Source: a virus
Taxonomy: Duplodnaviria > Heunggongvirae > Uroviricota > Caudoviricetes
Virus record (IMG/VR): IMGVR_UViG_2706794662_000018
Length of the DNA stretch: 16,525 nucleotides
Strand: one strand, 5' to 3'
This document shows positions 2,513 through 12,196 of the stretch, piece by piece. A model generated the notes under the pieces. The model worked only from the letters and a program-made list of their open reading frames with translations. It was not told the DNA's origin and ran no database searches. Each line of letters begins with the position of its first letter. Positions within the stretch are counted from its first letter, which is position 1. Made by a program: the position numbers and the translations under genes.

Positions 2513-2962
2513 ATGAGCGATTTAAAAACACGATTAAAAGAATATGAAGGTACTAAAGAGTATCAGGCAAATTTGAAGTACTTCAGAAATGGGAAATTCT
2601 ATCCATATGCTGATAGTTTAGGATGTAGTACTATTGGATATGGTCACTTAATTCAGGCGGGAGAAGATTTTAGTACTGGCATTACTGAAAGCGAAGCAGA
2701 CAAGTTACTATCTCGCGATTTAGCCAAAACAATTATGCAGGTACAGACATTAGGGTTAAATCTTCCCGATGACTGGAATGATTTTATTATTATCATGACC
2801 TTCCAGTTAGGTATTGGCGGGGTGAAGAAATTCCGTAAGATGTTAGCAGCCCTGAAAGCACATGATTACCTTGAAGCAATTAAACAGGCTAAGTGTTCTC
2901 TATGGTACAGGCAGACACCAAACCGTGTGAATTCCATGATTGCAGTACTTAAAAACAAATAA
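2513..2962 (+). CDS. endolysin, T4-type lysozyme (glycoside hydrolase family 24)
   Basis: 149-aa ORF, ATG start, TAA stop. Matches remembered T4/P22 lysozyme motifs: catalytic-region YEG ... YADSLG ... STIGYGH, then ITESEADKLLSRDL and CSLWYRQTPNRVNSMIAVL (T4: ITKDEAEKLFNQDV, SRWYNQTPNRAKRVITTF). No N-terminal hydrophobic SAR segment, so a holin is presumably required. Confidence 0.9.
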   Translation: MSDLKTRLKEYEGTKEYQANLKYFRNGKFYPYADSLGCSTIGYGHLIQAGEDFSTGITESEADKLLSRDLAKTIMQVQTLGLNLPDDWNDFIIIMTFQLGIGGVKKFRKMLAALKAHDYLEAIKQAKCSLWYRQTPNRVNSMIAVLKNK

Positions 2963-2968
2963 AGAAAA

Positions 2969-3002
2969 GGCATAGTACGAATGACATACTATGCCTTTTT
3001 TT
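2969..3002. terminator. bidirectional rho-independent terminator
   Basis: Perfect 9-bp stem ggcatagta (2969..2977) / tactatgcc (2987..2995) with a 9-nt loop. An A-run lies upstream and a T7 run at 2996..3002. It sits between the convergent endolysin (+) and the 3001..4029 gene (-). Confidence 0.65.
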
Positions 3003-4029
3003 ATGGTCGTTGTTTCTGCTGAAGAATTGCAATAATCCTTTCAATCTTAACATCAAGTTCATGGATTTGTGTTTCCAGTTTACTTAGTGTATCTCTCATC
3101 TTATCCTGATCATCCTCAATACGGGAAATACTACTTTCCAGTACAGCAATGGTAGTTTCAAGAGTAGCAACGCGAGTTAATAGATCATTCGTATCCTTTG
3201 TATTATCTCTAAAGATAGTATAAAGGAATACGCATCCAGAAATAACAANNNNNNNNNNNNNNNNNNNNNNNNNNNNNNNNNNNNNNNNNNNNNNNNNNNN
3301 NNNNNNNNNNNNNNNNNNNNNNNNNNNNNNNNNNNNNNNNNNNNNNNNNNNNNNNNNNNNNNNNNNNNNNNNNNNNNNNNNNNNNNNNNNNNNNNNNNNN
3401 NNNNNNNNNNNNNNNNNNNNNNNNNNNNNNNNNNNNNNNNNNNNNNNNNNNNNNNNNNNNNNNNNNNNNNNNNNNNNNNNNNNNNNNNNNNNNNNNNNNN
3501 NNNNNNNNNNNNNNNNNNNNNNNNNNNNNNNTGATATGTTCCCCGGACATTGTGACCAGCAGAACCAGGGATCAGCTACTGGAGACGTTACCGTAATGGC
3601 AGTACTGAGATCGGTAGCCGCAGGTGCTGTCAAAAATCCCCTGATACGTGGCATTGTTGCCGCTGATGCAGCAGACCAGATTAAAGTACCTTCTTCACTG
3701 AACACATCAAGAAAACCAGATGTGGGGGTAGCCGTGTGACTACTTGTCATGAACCTGCCCATGCCAGGCTGGAACATATAGGCACCAGGGAAACACCATG
3801 CCCCGTCTTTCTGTATCTGGAACCAGTACTGTGTTGTGTTCCTGTTAGCTACTACTGATGGCATAACGAAACCGAGCGATCCACCATTACCGAAGGCACA
3901 GGTAAAGCCTGTGTAGTATCCCGTATCAGTTAGATTTCCCATGGCCTTTACTGCACCCGTCATTATCGACTTGTTAGTACTATCTATAGTCAGTGCACCC
4001 GCTGAATTATATACCTCGAAACCTGCCAT
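3001..4029 (-). CDS. hypothetical tail-associated protein, paralogous at its N-terminus to the upstream 98-aa protein; continuity across the N run unverifiable
   Basis: ATG at 4029..4027, one nt after the upstream TAA. The N-terminal 166 aa are aromatic/Gly-rich. After the 283-nt N run the frame continues into a short hydrophobic segment (VISGCVFLYTIF) plus heptad-like coiled coil ending at 3001. The gap could hide a stop and a new start. Confidence 0.4.
   Translation of the reverse strand: MAGFEVYNSAGALTIDSTNKSIMTGAVKAMGNLTDTGYYTGFTCAFGNGGSLGFVMPSVVANRNTTQYWFQIQKDGAWCFPGAYMFQPGMGRFMTSSHTATPTSGFLDVFSEEGTLIWSAASAATMPRIRGFLTAPAATDLSTAITVTSPVADPWFCWSQCPGNISXXXXXXXXXXXXXXXXXXXXXXXXXXXXXXXXXXXXXXXXXXXXXXXXXXXXXXXXXXXXXXXXXXXXXXXXXXXXXXXXXXXXXXXXXXXXXXXVISGCVFLYTIFRDNTKDTNDLLTRVATLETTIAVLESSISRIEDDQDKMRDTLSKLETQIHELDVKIERIIAILQQKQRP
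3249..3531. other. run of N (masked or unsequenced), 283 nt
   Basis: Literal n characters in the sequence. Confidence 1.
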
Positions 4030-4030
4030 C

Positions 4031-4327
4031 TTACGCCGTCCACTTATATACGTTAAAAGTGTAGTTACCAGCTAACGGTGCATATGTTGGCAAATAAACC
4101 GCAGTAAATGACCCATTATTACAAAAGGCTGACCACTCATTAAAGGTATCACTGGCGGGGGCATAGTGTACAAACCAGCCTGTAGTTTTCATATTTGGTA
4201 CTGATACAGTATAGGTCTGTGCAGAAGTAGCCTTGACAGTATAAGTACCCATAAAACGTATGTTATAATCAGTCAGATCTACTACTAATACACCCGCTGC
4301 ATTCCAACATTGTAATCCCTGTGCCAT
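4031..4327 (-). CDS. hypothetical small tail-associated protein (candidate receptor-binding or fibre accessory protein)
   Basis: 98-aa ORF, ATG at 4327..4325 with AGGAG Shine-Dalgarno about 9 nt upstream. N-terminus MAQGLQCWNAAGVLVVDLTD parallels MAGFEVYNSAGALTIDSTN of the next gene. Aromatic-rich. Confidence 0.45.
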   Translation of the reverse strand: MAQGLQCWNAAGVLVVDLTDYNIRFMGTYTVKATSAQTYTVSVPNMKTTGWFVHYAPASDTFNEWSAFCNNGSFTAVYLPTYAPLAGNYTFNVYKWTA

Positions 4328-4484
4328 AGCTCTTACTCCTGTAAATCCTTTTCTTCATTCCAATTGTTTCTTTTCCGCTAATACTGAATGGGTTAGTACT
4401 GGTACTATTGAAAGTACGTTCATTAGATTTCATTTATGTATCCTTTTGAAATGAGGTTACAGTTAATAATCCCTGAATTATTTA

Positions 4485-8210
<3,726 letters not shown>

Positions 8211-8211
<1 letters not shown>

Positions 8212-9398
8212 TACTTGTATTTCCAGTTCTGATTTTGATTAACTTGACCTAACAGACTAAAGTACTCATCATTTCTATAGTAAGATTGATATACTGAGTT
8301 GGCGGCAATTAATGCAGGTTGTCTGTCTAATTTCTTATAGACAGAATTCACATATATAGTCATTTCGTTTTGCTTCTGATTTGGATCAGTTACTGCCTGT
8401 ACATAGTCAATAAACCCCGTAAACATGAGCATTGAATCAATTACAGTACTATCATATGGATTGAGAATTACTAACTTGATATTCATCTGTGCATCTTTCA
8501 AGAAACCACCAAGGGCAAGAGCACGAACCGAGGCGTTTACATTGCTAATTTTAAAATTGATAGCATCATTAGACATGCCCTTTTGTTCAGAATATGAAGG
8601 TAATGAACCACTGATAATGTCGGGGAAACTTATGTACTTATAACCATCCAGATCTATATCAATTAGTGAATCCGTCCAGTGAAAACCATTAGTACCTTTT
8701 GGTAGTACATCAAAACAAGTAACATTAACGCCTAAGCTCATAATTTCNNNNNNNNNNNNNNNNNNNNNNNNNNNNNNNNNNNNNNNNNNNNNNNNNNNNN
8801 NNNNNNNNNNNNNNNNNNNNNNNNNNNNNNNNNNNNNNNNNNNNNNNNNNNNNNNNNNNNNNNNNNNNNNNNNNNNNNNNNNNNNNNNNNNNNNNNNNNN
8901 NNNNNNNNNNNNNNNNNNNNNNNNNNNNNNNNNNNNNNNNNNNNNNNNNNNNNNNNNNNNNNNNNNNNNNNNNNNNNNNNNNNNNNNNNNNNNNNNNNNN
9001 NNNNAAGTACTGGTACGTTCTACGATTCGATATAGCTTATTGTGATTGGAAAACTGTACCCACTCACCCACAGCTAATGTGTTAGTACTGATAGGTACAA
9101 CCATATTACCCGGTTTAGTGAGAGCAGTAGCGGTTACTGCACCAGTCTGTTTACCGTAATATGTACCTGCAAGCCCCAATGACATAGTGAAAGGTTTGCC
9201 CTGTGCATATTGAGCTAAAAAGCTATTCACTTCATTTAGTGATGCAGGATTAAAATTAAGGGTGAACTGAATTTGATAGTATTGAATTCCAGTACTTCTC
9301 ATGATACGTTGACCTGTCCATGTTTGATTAGAATAGATCGGTTCAGTACTTTTAATTTGAAAGTTCGTTACTTTTATTTGATTTGAAAAGGATGCCAT
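8211..9398 (-). CDS. minor tail protein(s), gpM-like N-terminal part and gpL-like C-terminal part; may be two genes separated inside the N run
   Basis: ATG at 9398..9396. The 131 aa before the gap loosely resemble lambda gpM; the 178 aa after it loosely resemble gpL. Position directly downstream of the tape measure gene is as in lambda. The 257-nt N run could hide a stop and restart. Confidence 0.45.
8748..9004. other. run of N (masked or unsequenced), 257 nt
   Basis: Literal n characters. Confidence 1.
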
Positions 9399-9498
9399 TT
9401 TGTTACCTCGAATATCTTCTTTCTTTATTTATTTAAAAACCTCGATTCGTATTTTTTTTAACAGGCTTGATTGGCAGGCTGCATCCGTCATCGTTGCT

Positions 9499-9972
9499 AT
9501 GTTGTTATTTGCAGGCCAAATAGGCTATAACGCATATGATAAATGGAAAGAAAGTTCAGATGATGTTTTTAAGATGCGTGTAATCTTATTGAGCGAAATC
9601 AACAATAACCTTTTAGCTCTTGCTACTGGTGGCGATGAGTCTCAGGTGTTAGGCACATATGAAATATGTATTCCTCTTCCAACTGAAGATACAGAAGCTA
9701 TTAAAAGAGTAGCAACTGCCGTTTCTTATTTGCATGATGATGTATATTATTCCCAATTAGAAAAATTAGCATCACTCCCAAAAAAAGAAGTAGATGCCAT
9801 CGTAAAGAGTTATTATTCATTATCGAGATTACGTACTCTTTCAACACAGCTTGCATACAATATTAAATACTCACCACCTAAAGTTAAATTATTGCGGGAA
9901 GAGTATTACAATCTCTATACCCTTTCATCTTCTCTTTCACAATATTTGTCTTATCACACGGAAAATCCCTAA
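9499..9972 (+). CDS. hypothetical protein encoded opposite to the tail operon (moron-like), start uncertain
   Basis: Plus-strand frame open from 9400 to TAA at 9970..9972. First ATG is at 9499; the only in-frame upstream start is TTG at 9400. The TTG start would add a hydrophobic helix (WQAASVIVAMLLFAGQIGY). No strong Shine-Dalgarno at either. It converges on the tape measure gene with a 10-bp gap and is visibly more AT-rich than its neighbours. Confidence 0.45.
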   Translation: MLLFAGQIGYNAYDKWKESSDDVFKMRVILLSEINNNLLALATGGDESQVLGTYEICIPLPTEDTEAIKRVATAVSYLHDDVYYSQLEKLASLPKKEVDAIVKSYYSLSRLRTLSTQLAYNIKYSPPKVKLLREEYYNLYTLSSSLSQYLSYHTENP

Positions 9973-9982
9973 CTGGGCTTTC

Positions 9983-12196
9983 TTATGTATTACGTTTTTG
10001 ACTACTTCTCACAGCTTGAGAAACACTATTGGCGTGTTTCTTAAGCATCTCATTAAATTTCTTGTCATCATCAGCTACATCACCCTGGATGATCAATGGT
10101 GCGTTAACGGTAATATCACCTGAAGTACTTCCACCTTCTTGTTTATCCAAGAATGCTGTTAATTTCTTATTCGCTTCAGGCTGCACCACTCTCTCGCCCT
10201 GCTTAAGTACAAATGATTTGTTGTCATAACTTGCTGGTAGTTCATCTACCCCGCCATGGAACTGACCAGCAGCAGCACCCTTTGCAGTACTAATAATCGA
10301 CATACCAAGTGAAAGTACTTGTGCATAGTTTGCCAATGAAGCTGGCCAAGGGGTAGCGAGTGCTTGGGCCAATGCTGACTGAATTGAAAGTACTGTCTGT
10401 GCAATGCTTATGCTCTTACTTAGGGTAAATGCAGCTTGTGCAGCCCCACTACTTTCCCCAAACGCATCAACCATGCCCTGTGATAGTGACTGTGCAGTAC
10501 TTGAGAAGATACTTAACTGATCCTGTGCATTCTGGTTACTGATTTGGATGGCCTGTGCATTGTACTTTGCCGTGATCTCAGCTTTACGTTTCTCATAGTC
10601 CTCATGGCCTTTCAGCAACAACTCATTCTGCTGAAGTTCAGCATTCATAGCATCAGCGTTATCTTTCAACTTCTGATCGGTATCGTTATAGGCTAATGGA
10701 TTACCACCATTGATACGCTGATTCTGTTGCTGTGCCAGATACCCCTTCTGATTGTCATTGAGTAGACCGGAACCAATAAGAGCATTGGTATCTTTCAGAC
10801 CCTGATTAGGATCTTGATAACCAACCATTGAATTCAGTAAATCAGTACGTTGTTTAGCACCATATGCAGTAGCGTTCTTTAGCATTTCATCAGGATTGAT
10901 ACCGAGTACTTGAGCACTATCGGTGATGGTTTTAAGAAGTGCCTTTTGTTGTCTGTCGAACTGCTGTAGACGTACCTGAAAACCATCTTCCCCAACTTGA
11001 GCAAGAGCAGCTTCCAGATTACGTTGAGCCTGTAGGCGTTTTGCATCTGCCGCCTTTTGTGCCGCTTCTGCCTGTTTACGTTGTTGTTCTAACTTCTTCG
11101 CTGCATCTTCAGCTTCTTTTGCCTGATCAACCCATCCGCCAGTAGGAGCGGTAGCAACCGCAACATCGGACTTTAGGTTGTTTGCCAGTTCTTCTAAACG
11201 TGCCTTAGCCTGAGCGAACTCATTACCCTTGTTGCCCTTATCATCCATGATGCCAGTATTGAGTGCTGCACCCTGGTAGTTTAATGCCCCTGCTGTACGT
11301 AATTTTTCCCAGATATCCAACATATCCTGTAGAGAACCCTTGGAAGTTTTAATACGTTCATTCAGATCTTCAAACAAACCTGCCTCGTGAGGTTTTTGAT
11401 TTGCAGCATCATAGACACTGTTCATGGCATTAACTAAAGGTGATAGGCCATCAGCAATAGTACCTTTAATGCTGGTAGTAAGTTTCCCAAGGTTTTTATC
11501 GAATTCAGCATATTTTTCAGCAGCATCATTAGTTACTTCAGCATTTTGTGACTGGATATAGGCTGTAGCTTGAGCCTCATTATTGAACTGCTGAAGAGTA
11601 CTAATCATGTGGCTTGAGTCACTGGCTAACGTTTCCATTACGTTAACTATTTCACTCTGTGATTTACCTGCATCACGCATGGCGTAAAAGGTGTGGATCA
11701 CAGCCTGCATACCACCATCAGCCTGTTTTAAGTACTTGTTATAGTCCTGTAGGTTGAGTCCATATTCTTTAAGATCATCGGATACACCACCGCCAGCACG
11801 AAAAGCATCACCGAGCTTATCCAAGGTATCCTTGTTGAAATCACCAAACTTATCAATCTCAAGACCGAGGCCACTAAACGCCGCTGATAGCTGTTGTAAC
11901 TGAACCACGGACAATCCGGTACTCTTACTGATCTGGTTCATTTCACGCACATATTCACGTGATGATTCTACTAATGCTGCCAGGCCACCAATACCAATAG
12001 CCGCAGCACCCGCGATCCCGGTCATAGCAGTACCGAACCCGCCAGCCATACCAGTTATTCGGCCTGTGAACTCTTCAACAATGCCACCAGCAGTACTACC
12101 AAATTCCTCTAATGATTCAGTACCAGACCTTAAAGCACGCTGTAAACCGGAAGAATCACCCGTAATATCTACACGTATTCTATTATTATTTGCCAT
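9983..12196 (-). CDS. tail tape measure protein
   Basis: 737-aa ORF, AGGAA Shine-Dalgarno about 9 nt upstream of the ATG. Gly-rich hydrophobic segment near the N-terminus (GMAGGFGTAMTGIAGAAAIGIGGLAAL), long A/Q/K/E-rich helical stretches, second hydrophobic region near the C-terminus. Sits immediately downstream of the G/G-T chaperone pair. Confidence 0.85.
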   Translation of the reverse strand: MANNNRIRVDITGDSSGLQRALRSGTESLEEFGSTAGGIVEEFTGRITGMAGGFGTAMTGIAGAAAIGIGGLAALVESSREYVREMNQISKSTGLSVVQLQQLSAAFSGLGLEIDKFGDFNKDTLDKLGDAFRAGGGVSDDLKEYGLNLQDYNKYLKQADGGMQAVIHTFYAMRDAGKSQSEIVNVMETLASDSSHMISTLQQFNNEAQATAYIQSQNAEVTNDAAEKYAEFDKNLGKLTTSIKGTIADGLSPLVNAMNSVYDAANQKPHEAGLFEDLNERIKTSKGSLQDMLDIWEKLRTAGALNYQGAALNTGIMDDKGNKGNEFAQAKARLEELANNLKSDVAVATAPTGGWVDQAKEAEDAAKKLEQQRKQAEAAQKAADAKRLQAQRNLEAALAQVGEDGFQVRLQQFDRQQKALLKTITDSAQVLGINPDEMLKNATAYGAKQRTDLLNSMVGYQDPNQGLKDTNALIGSGLLNDNQKGYLAQQQNQRINGGNPLAYNDTDQKLKDNADAMNAELQQNELLLKGHEDYEKRKAEITAKYNAQAIQISNQNAQDQLSIFSSTAQSLSQGMVDAFGESSGAAQAAFTLSKSISIAQTVLSIQSALAQALATPWPASLANYAQVLSLGMSIISTAKGAAAGQFHGGVDELPASYDNKSFVLKQGERVVQPEANKKLTAFLDKQEGGSTSGDITVNAPLIIQGDVADDDKKFNEMLKKHANSVSQAVRSSQKRNT

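Follow-up and report, generated by a model that had tools for sequence, protein, structure and literature searches.

The stretch of DNA considered here, hereafter the window, comprises the 16,525 nucleotides (nt) of IMG/VR virus record IMGVR_UViG_2706794662_000018 (Caudoviricetes) and holds the tail module of a siphovirus (Table 1). Our subject is the pair of genes that follows the gene of the J-like central tail fibre/tip protein; one encodes a small protein of 98 amino acids (aa) and the other a protein of 218 aa belonging to the family DUF8377 (PF28254). Both are discussed as candidate components of the tail tip.

Gene structure downstream of J

At three places the window is masked by runs of N (3249-3531, 7015-7304 and 8748-9004), which give rise to artificial long open reading frames (ORFs). 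The ORF following the 98-aa gene does start at 4029 with MAGFEVYNSAGALTIDSTN, as stated in an original prediction made from the letters of the window, but its length of 342 aa is an artefact of the first mask, and a single gene at 3001-4029 is ruled out. In six unmasked contigs, namely the IMG/VR contigs L019 and L020 (100% identical to the window on both mask flanks) and the Logan contigs L003-L006 (94-97% nucleotide identity on the flanks), the masked region resolves into a 218-aa protein, a spacer of 38-56 nt and a separate 90-aa gene. The identical contigs correspond to records IMGVR_UViG_2690316276_000015 and 2671180405_000018. In the window itself only residues 1-166 of the DUF8377 protein are readable; its 3′ end lies in the mask, and the coordinate was taken from the identical contigs.

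The 98-aa ORF is intact and lies directly downstream of J, as had been predicted, beginning 157 nt past the J stop; the DUF8377 gene follows after 1 nt. Between J and the 98-aa gene a terminator-like site was looked for and not found, and the 157-nt spacer does not fold more stably than shuffled sequence (z = 0.53). Because there is no terminator after J and a strong terminator-like hairpin lies at 2965-2999, past the 90-aa gene, the small-protein and DUF8377 genes appear to belong to the tail operon together with J. The 54-aa ORF overlapping the start of the 98-aa gene has no family match, was called as a gene in only one relative contig and is probably spurious.

Table 1. Features of the window, from the tail tube genes to the end of the tail operon. 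Tail-module genes lie on the minus strand.
Feature	Position	Strand	Remarks
Tube-plus-fibre fusion protein, 883 aa	13464-16115	-
Tail tube protein, 157 aa	12932-13405	-
Chaperone-like genes			between tube and distal tail genes
Tape measure protein	9983-12196		between tube fusion and distal tail genes
Distal tail proteins and DUF6950 protein			between tape measure and J
J-like central tail fibre/tip protein, 1109 aa	4485-7814	-	internal N-mask 7015-7304
Last ~61 residues of J	4488-4670	-	where both downstream proteins are proposed to dock
Spacer between J and 98-aa gene, 157 nt	4328-4484	-	holds ribosome-binding site AGGAG upstream of the 98-aa ATG
54-aa ORF, doubtful	4269-4433	-	overlaps the 98-aa start by 59 nt
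98-aa small protein, proposed adaptor (gp55 equivalent)	4031-4327	-	all-beta lectin-like sandwich (model)
N-terminal hairpin motif of 98-aa protein, residues 1-20	4268-4327	-	MAQGLQCWNAAGVLVVDLTD; most conserved part of the family
218-aa DUF8377 (PF28254) protein, proposed receptor-binding subunit	3373-4029	-	ends ...ALATFTGY
N-terminal hairpin motif copy in DUF8377, residues 1-20	3970-4029	-	MAGFEVYNSAGALTIDSTNK
Internal motif copy in DUF8377, residues ~104-120	3670-3720	-	SGFLDVFSEEGTLIWSA
N-mask, 283 nt	3249-3531		covers the last 52 DUF8377 codons, the intergenic (ACAATA)n repeat and ~9 codons at the start of the 90-aa gene
~90-aa gene, N-terminal transmembrane helix and coiled coil	3001-3273	-	MDIGAILALVISGCVFLYTIF...; 5′ end in mask, start approximate
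Terminator-like hairpin, strong	2965-2999	-	past the 90-aa gene, shared with the convergent lysozyme gene

The J-like protein

The J-like protein has Pfam matches to PF13550, fn3 and PF09327 (Phage_Tail_Tip), and its alignment to phrog_31 'central tail fiber J' covers positions 547-1302 of the 1565 in that profile. In lambda J, PF09327 at 845-972 is followed by the receptor-binding domain PF12421 (Ig_GpJ_C) at 1001-1132, whereas Pfam found PF12421 neither in the J of the window nor in that of an unmasked relative (95-97% identical), where PF09327 occurs as two matched stretches, the second at 1027-1080 of 1100, and nearly reaches the end. The prediction that J is without a lambda-type receptor-binding C-terminus was thus borne out, except that J ends not ~70 aa past a DUF1983-like region but only ~20 aa past the Phage_Tail_Tip domain. 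The J proteins of the phages HK639, IsaakIselin and IME347 likewise carry PF09327 near the end and are without PF12421.

The C-terminal segment of ~60 residues is very similar in the J proteins of the window, HK639, IsaakIselin and IME347 (...YDxNNxLRVRMGL[WF]) and is also conserved in gp34 of Acinetobacter phage XC38, gp93 of Pseudomonas phage phCDa and gp56 of Pseudomonas phage DEV. Its top tblastn matches are phages that also encode the pair of small protein and DUF8377 protein.

At its other end J begins with a long hydrophobic Gly/Ala-rich stretch (residues 1-55; 7650-7814, minus strand). Genes of the lambda I, K and L type are not evident as separate genes, the DUF6950 gene aside, and the N-terminal segment of J may be a fused tail-assembly part.

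The small protein and the DUF8377 protein

When 1.8 billion representative proteins were searched with a profile, 110 proteins related to the small protein were returned, almost all of them 90-105 aa long. Invariant residues of the family are M1, G4, L5, Q6, W8, V16, D17, L18, D20 and R24; the protein also matches phrog_2427 and the N-terminus of phrog_4062. AlphaFold2 predicts for it an all-beta structure with a confident pLDDT score of 85, which is a lectin-like beta-sandwich of the kind that fibres and spikes carry distally. In the model the N-terminal motif described below forms a beta-hairpin (E6-8 and E14-17).

All 35 database homologues of the 218-aa protein, including P0001 (96% identical), carry a precomputed PF28254 annotation. 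A Pfam scan of the window fragments with a library that was without the PF28254 model gave nothing for either protein. The AlphaFold2 model of the DUF8377 protein is again confident and all-beta (pLDDT 83); the first 20 residues are unplaced in the monomer (pLDDT < 50), and an internal motif copy takes the shape of a hairpin in the model (E108-110 and E116-119). The two models, each a beta-sandwich, both match 9rpt_C. A Foldseek search of the DUF8377 model against predicted viral structures returned the partner proteins from XC38 and phCDa, phCDa gp91 with E = 2e-5 and a template modelling (TM) score of 0.44, and PDB sequence searches with the DUF8377 profile, DEV gp54 and DEV gp55 gave no meaningful match. 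By sequence inspection, made on the 98-aa protein and, for DUF8377, on P0001, neither protein has a signal peptide, a lipobox, a transmembrane segment or a hydrophobic stretch.

A shared, repeated hairpin motif

Both proteins open with the pattern G-[LF]-x-x-[WY]-N-x-x-G-x-L-x-[VI]-D, which spans ~20 residues and is the best-conserved part of the two families alike. In a pairwise BLASTP the two are not significantly similar (E = 3.9-4.9). A Smith-Waterman alignment of the two N-terminal 22-mers scored 43, the best of 20,000 shuffles reaching 36 (p < 5e-5), the full-length shuffle gave p = 0.003, and hhalign of the 101-sequence small-protein profile with the DUF8377 profile matched 22 N-terminal columns (P = 1.3e-5, probability 81-90%) and, as a second match, DUF8377 residues 107-117 (P = 1.5e-3). 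Past residue ~23 neither BLASTP nor hhalign aligned them. The claim that the proteins begin with related sequences therefore holds over ~20 residues and does not extend to their full length.

We then built a hidden Markov model (HMM) of the motif only and judged its matches against the best of 300 shuffles. Matches above this maximum were obtained in DUF8377 at residues 2-16 (7.2 bits) and 109-117 (6.8 bits), in HK639 gp25 at 1-16 and 105-113, in the T1 proteins ST32 (2-13) and ST31 (115-124), and in P0137, a 313-aa protein of the representative library, at 2-19 and 205-215. Because the motif recurs inside DUF8377 (residues ~104-120), the resemblance is, as judged from these alignments, that of a shared, repeated hairpin module rather than of a recent duplication or full-length paralogy.

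P0137 has an N-terminus like that of the small protein and a third motif copy at ~106-125, the latter seen by eye only, which makes it a candidate fusion of adaptor and receptor-binding subunit.

Divergence within the lineage was followed in three relatives, L016-L018, the reference being the window and, for its masked parts, L003. Against this reference amino-acid identity is 56-74% for the small protein, 74-81% for DUF8377, 62-84% for J segments, 51-55% for the tape measure protein and 60-66% for the lysozyme. The hypervariability of the pair that had been put forward as a check was not found within this lineage, the pair being no more divergent than the adjacent tail genes.

Gene order in other phages

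Megablast of the locus against collections of phages, plasmids and complete E. coli genomes found no close relative, the only match being one of 75% inside J, and the best match of the tube protein in the phage collection is 40% identical. The phage belongs to a poorly sampled, enterobacterial siphovirus lineage.

A census covered those 80 IMG/VR contigs that ranked best for a DUF8377 homologue (40-98% identity). In 79 of them the small protein is encoded directly upstream of DUF8377 and preceded by a J-type C-terminus, all on one strand and with gaps usually of 2-20 nt. The sole other contig, L041 (IMGVR_UViG_2225789004_000342), has no detected upstream small protein or J-type C-terminus on the same strand.

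By tblastn the pair was found in the same order beside J in the lambdoid phage HK639 and in many Drexlerviridae of Escherichia and Klebsiella, as well as in phages of Cronobacter, Pantoea and Acinetobacter. The trio is present in N4-like podoviruses too, as gp34 (ending ...LRVRMGLW), gp35 and gp36 in XC38 and as gp93, gp92 and gp91 in phCDa. Pairwise BLASTP of the mid-sized proteins (DUF8377, XC38 gp36, phCDa gp91, DEV gp54 and T1 ST31) was significant for XC38 gp36 only.

Relation to gp56-gp55-gp54 of phage DEV

An experimentally dissected counterpart is found in Pseudomonas phage DEV (Schitoviridae), in which a gpJ-like fibre (gp56), a protein of 99 aa (gp55) and one of 223 aa (gp54) are co-transcribed and each essential (PMC12892993). 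Suppressor mutations by which growth on an lptD mutant is regained lie in gp54, and in the AlphaFold3 model a gp56 trimer carries one copy each of gp55 and gp54, with gp55 near loop 9 of LptD, whose deletion leads to temperature-sensitive plating (PMC12892993). Detection of gp55 in DEV virions was reported as uncertain, and the orthologues of gp54 and gp55 in phage LIT1 were reported as virion proteins (PMC12892993).

The window shares with DEV three consecutive genes in the same order and of near-equal size (98 and 218 aa versus 99 and 223 aa), a homologous J C-terminus, a homologous small protein and the motif both at the N-termini and near residue 115 of the larger protein. In a BLASTP alignment of 238 columns that extends to the final residues, the last ~230 aa of the window J are 29% identical to DEV gp56 (E = 4e-23). 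DEV gp55 is matched by the small-protein HMM over its whole length (HMM 1-92, 25 bits, E = 1.3e-9 in a single comparison; hhalign probability 92.8%). DEV differs in being a podovirus with LptD as receptor and with its fibre beside the tail plug, whereas in the window a full-length siphovirus J has the fibre as its C-terminal part.

In DEV gp54 motif copies are located at residues 1 and 115. A further match of the small-protein HMM, to residues 115-185 of gp54 (16 bits, independent E = 7.5e-7), suggests that an ancient copy of the small subunit makes up the C-terminal half of the larger one. A search for homologues of DEV gp54 returned a single Litunavirus cluster, a family too narrow for a profile.

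Relation to YncD-, FhuA- and LptD-type loci

Two phages that require the outer-membrane protein YncD, IME347 and IsaakIselin (PMC6499177, PMC8594841), each encode beside J a small protein, a DUF8377 protein and a signal-peptide protein. In these YncD-type loci (IME347 gp55/gp54/gp53; IsaakIselin bas10_0026/0025/0024; HK639 gp24/gp25) the same two families are adjacent in the same order, with identities to the window proteins of 32-40% (small protein) and 37-42% (DUF8377, over the full length; 37% to bas10_0025, 42% to HK639 gp25), and J is without a receptor-binding domain and ends in ...LRVRMGL[WF]. They differ from the window in that in Drexlerviridae the pair is convergent with J. The window phage also belongs to a different siphovirus lineage than the carriers of these loci, and YncD as its receptor is a prediction.

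A 2026 preprint ties four protein families at the gpJ-adjacent locus, often with accessory proteins, to FhuA, BtuB, LptD or YncD and defines the YncD-associated family by >30% identity. The DUF8377 protein of the window exceeds this value over near-full coverage to a YncD-linked allele, that of IsaakIselin. By family membership the likeliest receptor may therefore be the TonB-dependent transporter YncD, an assignment that we make tentatively and at somewhat less than even odds.

FhuA-dependent phages have a small and a mid-sized gene after J as well, in T1 those of ST32 (101 aa) and ST31 (229 aa), with homologues in N15 and HK022. The motif HMM matches the N-terminus of ST32 and ST31 at 115-124, but the mid-sized proteins have no detectable sequence similarity to DUF8377, T1 J ends in ...RVQIGRLTGSW and the receptor is FhuA. 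The LptD-binding protein of Oekolampad/Rtp44 (PDB 9RPT; bioRxiv 10.1101/2025.07.07.663478) differs in being a single polypeptide without a small partner gene and in its receptor; hhalign of both window families with the Rtp44/Oekolampad pair was not significant (P >= 0.1). With lambda J and T5 pb5 the likeness is one of functional outcome, in that the central fibre's tip recognises an outer-membrane protein; in lambda the binding domain (PF12421), absent in the window, is within J, and pb5 of T5 is a single unrelated protein.

Proposed function

Homology and strict synteny with the modules DEV gp56-gp55-gp54 and the YncD-type loci of IME347 and IsaakIselin make it very probable that the 98-aa protein and the DUF8377 protein are separate components of the tail tip, providing the receptor binding which J lacks. 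This part of the original prediction is supported; the idea of a duplicated pair is not.

We propose, with a probability of about 0.75, that the 98-aa protein as adaptor and the 218-aa DUF8377 protein as receptor-binding subunit sit together on the end of J and form a module of a known type. Gene structure, homology, synteny and resemblance in fold are what was observed; from these we infer presence in the virion, the stoichiometry, which of the subunits contacts the receptor and which receptor that is. The J trimer would end in a conserved tip devoid of a receptor-binding domain of its own. To its distal end one adaptor and one DUF8377 subunit would attach via the conserved hairpins, in a ratio of 3:1:1 by analogy with DEV. 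Variable loops of the DUF8377 beta-sandwich would then bind an outer-membrane protein of the enterobacterial host, and recognition at the tip would trigger irreversible adsorption. The hairpins probably form the attachment face because they are the best-conserved parts of both families, and the N-terminal hairpin of DUF8377, conserved yet unplaced in the model of the monomer, would fit a docking element.

Several points weigh against this proposal. Past the short motif, DUF8377 has no significant similarity to DEV gp54, T1 ST31 (gp31) or the LptD-binding proteins, and equating it with gp54 relies on position, size, homology of the partner and fold. In the literature the link between the YncD family and its receptor is correlative, and at 37-42% identity the receptor of the window phage may differ. 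The Drexlerviridae locus has a third gene, that of the signal-peptide protein (a putative exclusion factor), which is absent in the window; no cognate exclusion protein was found at the window locus, where the next gene is that of the 90-aa transmembrane coiled-coil protein. At published gpJ-adjacent loci an exclusion protein is frequent, not universal. Finally, the phage is known here from sequence alone, and location in the virion and receptor are both predicted.

Alternatives

The 98-aa protein could be an assembly chaperone, like tail-fibre assembly proteins, which aids folding or attachment of DUF8377 or of the J tip and then leaves the virion. Its small size, its constant position beside the gene of its partner and the uncertain detection of gp55 in DEV virions (PMC12892993) would agree with such a role. 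We consider it unlikely, given that gp55 and gp54 have orthologues in LIT1 reported to be structural proteins, that AlphaFold3 puts gp55 in the tip complex (PMC12892993) and that a lectin-like beta-sandwich, as modelled for the 98-aa protein, is not a known chaperone fold. Quite improbable, too, is that both proteins bind receptors independently, either with two specificities or for primary and secondary recognition: conservation in the family of the small protein is mainly that of the N-terminal hairpin, and the DEV suppressors map only to gp54 (PMC12892993). What speaks for two binders is that both models resemble carbohydrate- or receptor-binding beta-sandwiches, and that the loop of LptD near which gp55 was modelled is the one whose deletion affects plating of DEV (PMC12892993).

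A further reading, which takes up the evolutionary idea of the original prediction, has the two as recent paralogues, interchangeable as alternative receptor-binding proteins, whose duplication and divergence would alter host range. They do have the N-terminal motif in common, and the match of the small-protein HMM to the C-terminal half of DEV gp54 points to a duplication of modules, albeit an ancient one. With lengths of 98 versus 218 aa, only ~22 alignable columns, no hypervariability in the lineage and co-occurrence in fixed order in 79 of 80 contigs, in which they behave as an obligatory pair of different subunits, this explanation is largely refuted and the proposed route to host-range change unsupported. 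Equally remote is the view that the genes are non-structural cargo, superinfection exclusion or moron genes placed after J by chance. Exclusion genes (cor, rtp45, llp) do occupy the same locus in related phages, and ST32 and ST31 of T1 were formerly annotated as membrane proteins; against this stand the lack of a signal peptide, lipobox or transmembrane segment in either protein, the operon shared with J without an intervening terminator, and the homology of the module to essential tail genes of DEV.

Implications

The adaptor/receptor-binding proposal gives a working function for DUF8377 and for an unnamed family of phage proteins of ~100 aa, and it links the gpJ-adjacent locus of coliphages to the experimentally dissected fibre of DEV. 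It also shows the three-part cassette moving as a unit between siphoviruses and N4-like podoviruses infecting Escherichia, Klebsiella, Cronobacter, Acinetobacter and Pseudomonas. For an uncultured lineage of enterobacterial phages a YncD-like receptor is predicted, and in phage engineering the hairpins and the J C-terminus would be the interface to keep when receptor-binding modules are swapped. To specialists the biology will not be surprising, as dedicated receptor-binding proteins after a J without binding domain have been described since 2021; the hairpin repeat and the possible relation of the split form to fused, single-chain receptor-binding proteins might be the only new parts.

These two parts can be extended to a more general scheme, which we regard as doubtful. 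The hairpin of ~20 residues that opens each module of ~100 residues would serve universally as the plug that fits the trimeric tip of J, and three hairpins, one from the small protein and two from DUF8377, would meet the three J C-termini, by which the 3:1:1 symmetry mismatch would be resolved. The YncD-, FhuA- and LptD-type families and that of DEV gp54, published as 'unrelated', would then be diverged arrangements of one ancestral module, with Rtp44/Oekolampad (311-321 aa, near 98 + 218) and the 313-aa P0137 as fused forms.

Other features of the window

The 90-aa gene is called separately, with 85-92 aa, in L003-L006 and L016-L018. It was considered as part of the second protein and rejected as such, the segment 3001-3273 being a separate gene in the unmasked contigs; an exclusion factor homologous to bas10_0024 was rejected as well, as no similarity was found in comparisons with the signal-peptide genes bas10_0024 and IME347 gp53. 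Its only matches are weak ones of coiled-coil, spanin and DUF2730 type, and it may act in lysis or in exclusion. The gene closes the tail operon and is convergent with the lysozyme gene (2513-2962, plus strand).

The spacer between the DUF8377 gene and the 90-aa gene contains a perfect hexanucleotide repeat, (ACAATA)n, with 6.7 copies in L019 (3659-3698). The spacer is 38 nt long in L003 and 56 nt in L019, and in the window it would measure ~99 nt (about 3274-3372, inside the mask), provided that masking left the length unchanged; the differing lengths suggest a variable-number repeat.

A further ORF produced by masking is one of '395 aa' (8211-9398), which in unmasked relatives is two genes, encoding a pb9-like distal tail protein of 185 aa and a protein of 207 aa. 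The 883-aa protein and the 157-aa tube protein are tail-tube paralogues (31% identity of the latter to residues 1-140 of the former, E = 3e-19). Beyond the tube part the 883-aa protein has repeats of ~20 aa, a region of fibre type and an intramolecular chaperone domain (Peptidase_S74), and we read it as a side fibre joined to a tube subunit.

Between the tape measure and distal tail genes a 190-aa ORF with a hydrophobic N-terminus lies on the opposite strand (9400-9972, plus), for which Pfam gave zero matches. In relatives its slot is occupied by another gene (157 aa, or 209 aa with DUF6216) or is empty, and the site looks like a variable cargo slot within the tail operon.

Just outside the tail operon are the genes of a SegE-type GIY-YIG homing endonuclease and of a three-transmembrane holin (PF11351), at 2042-2476 and 856-1149 on the minus strand. 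The lysis genes are dispersed and differ in strand.

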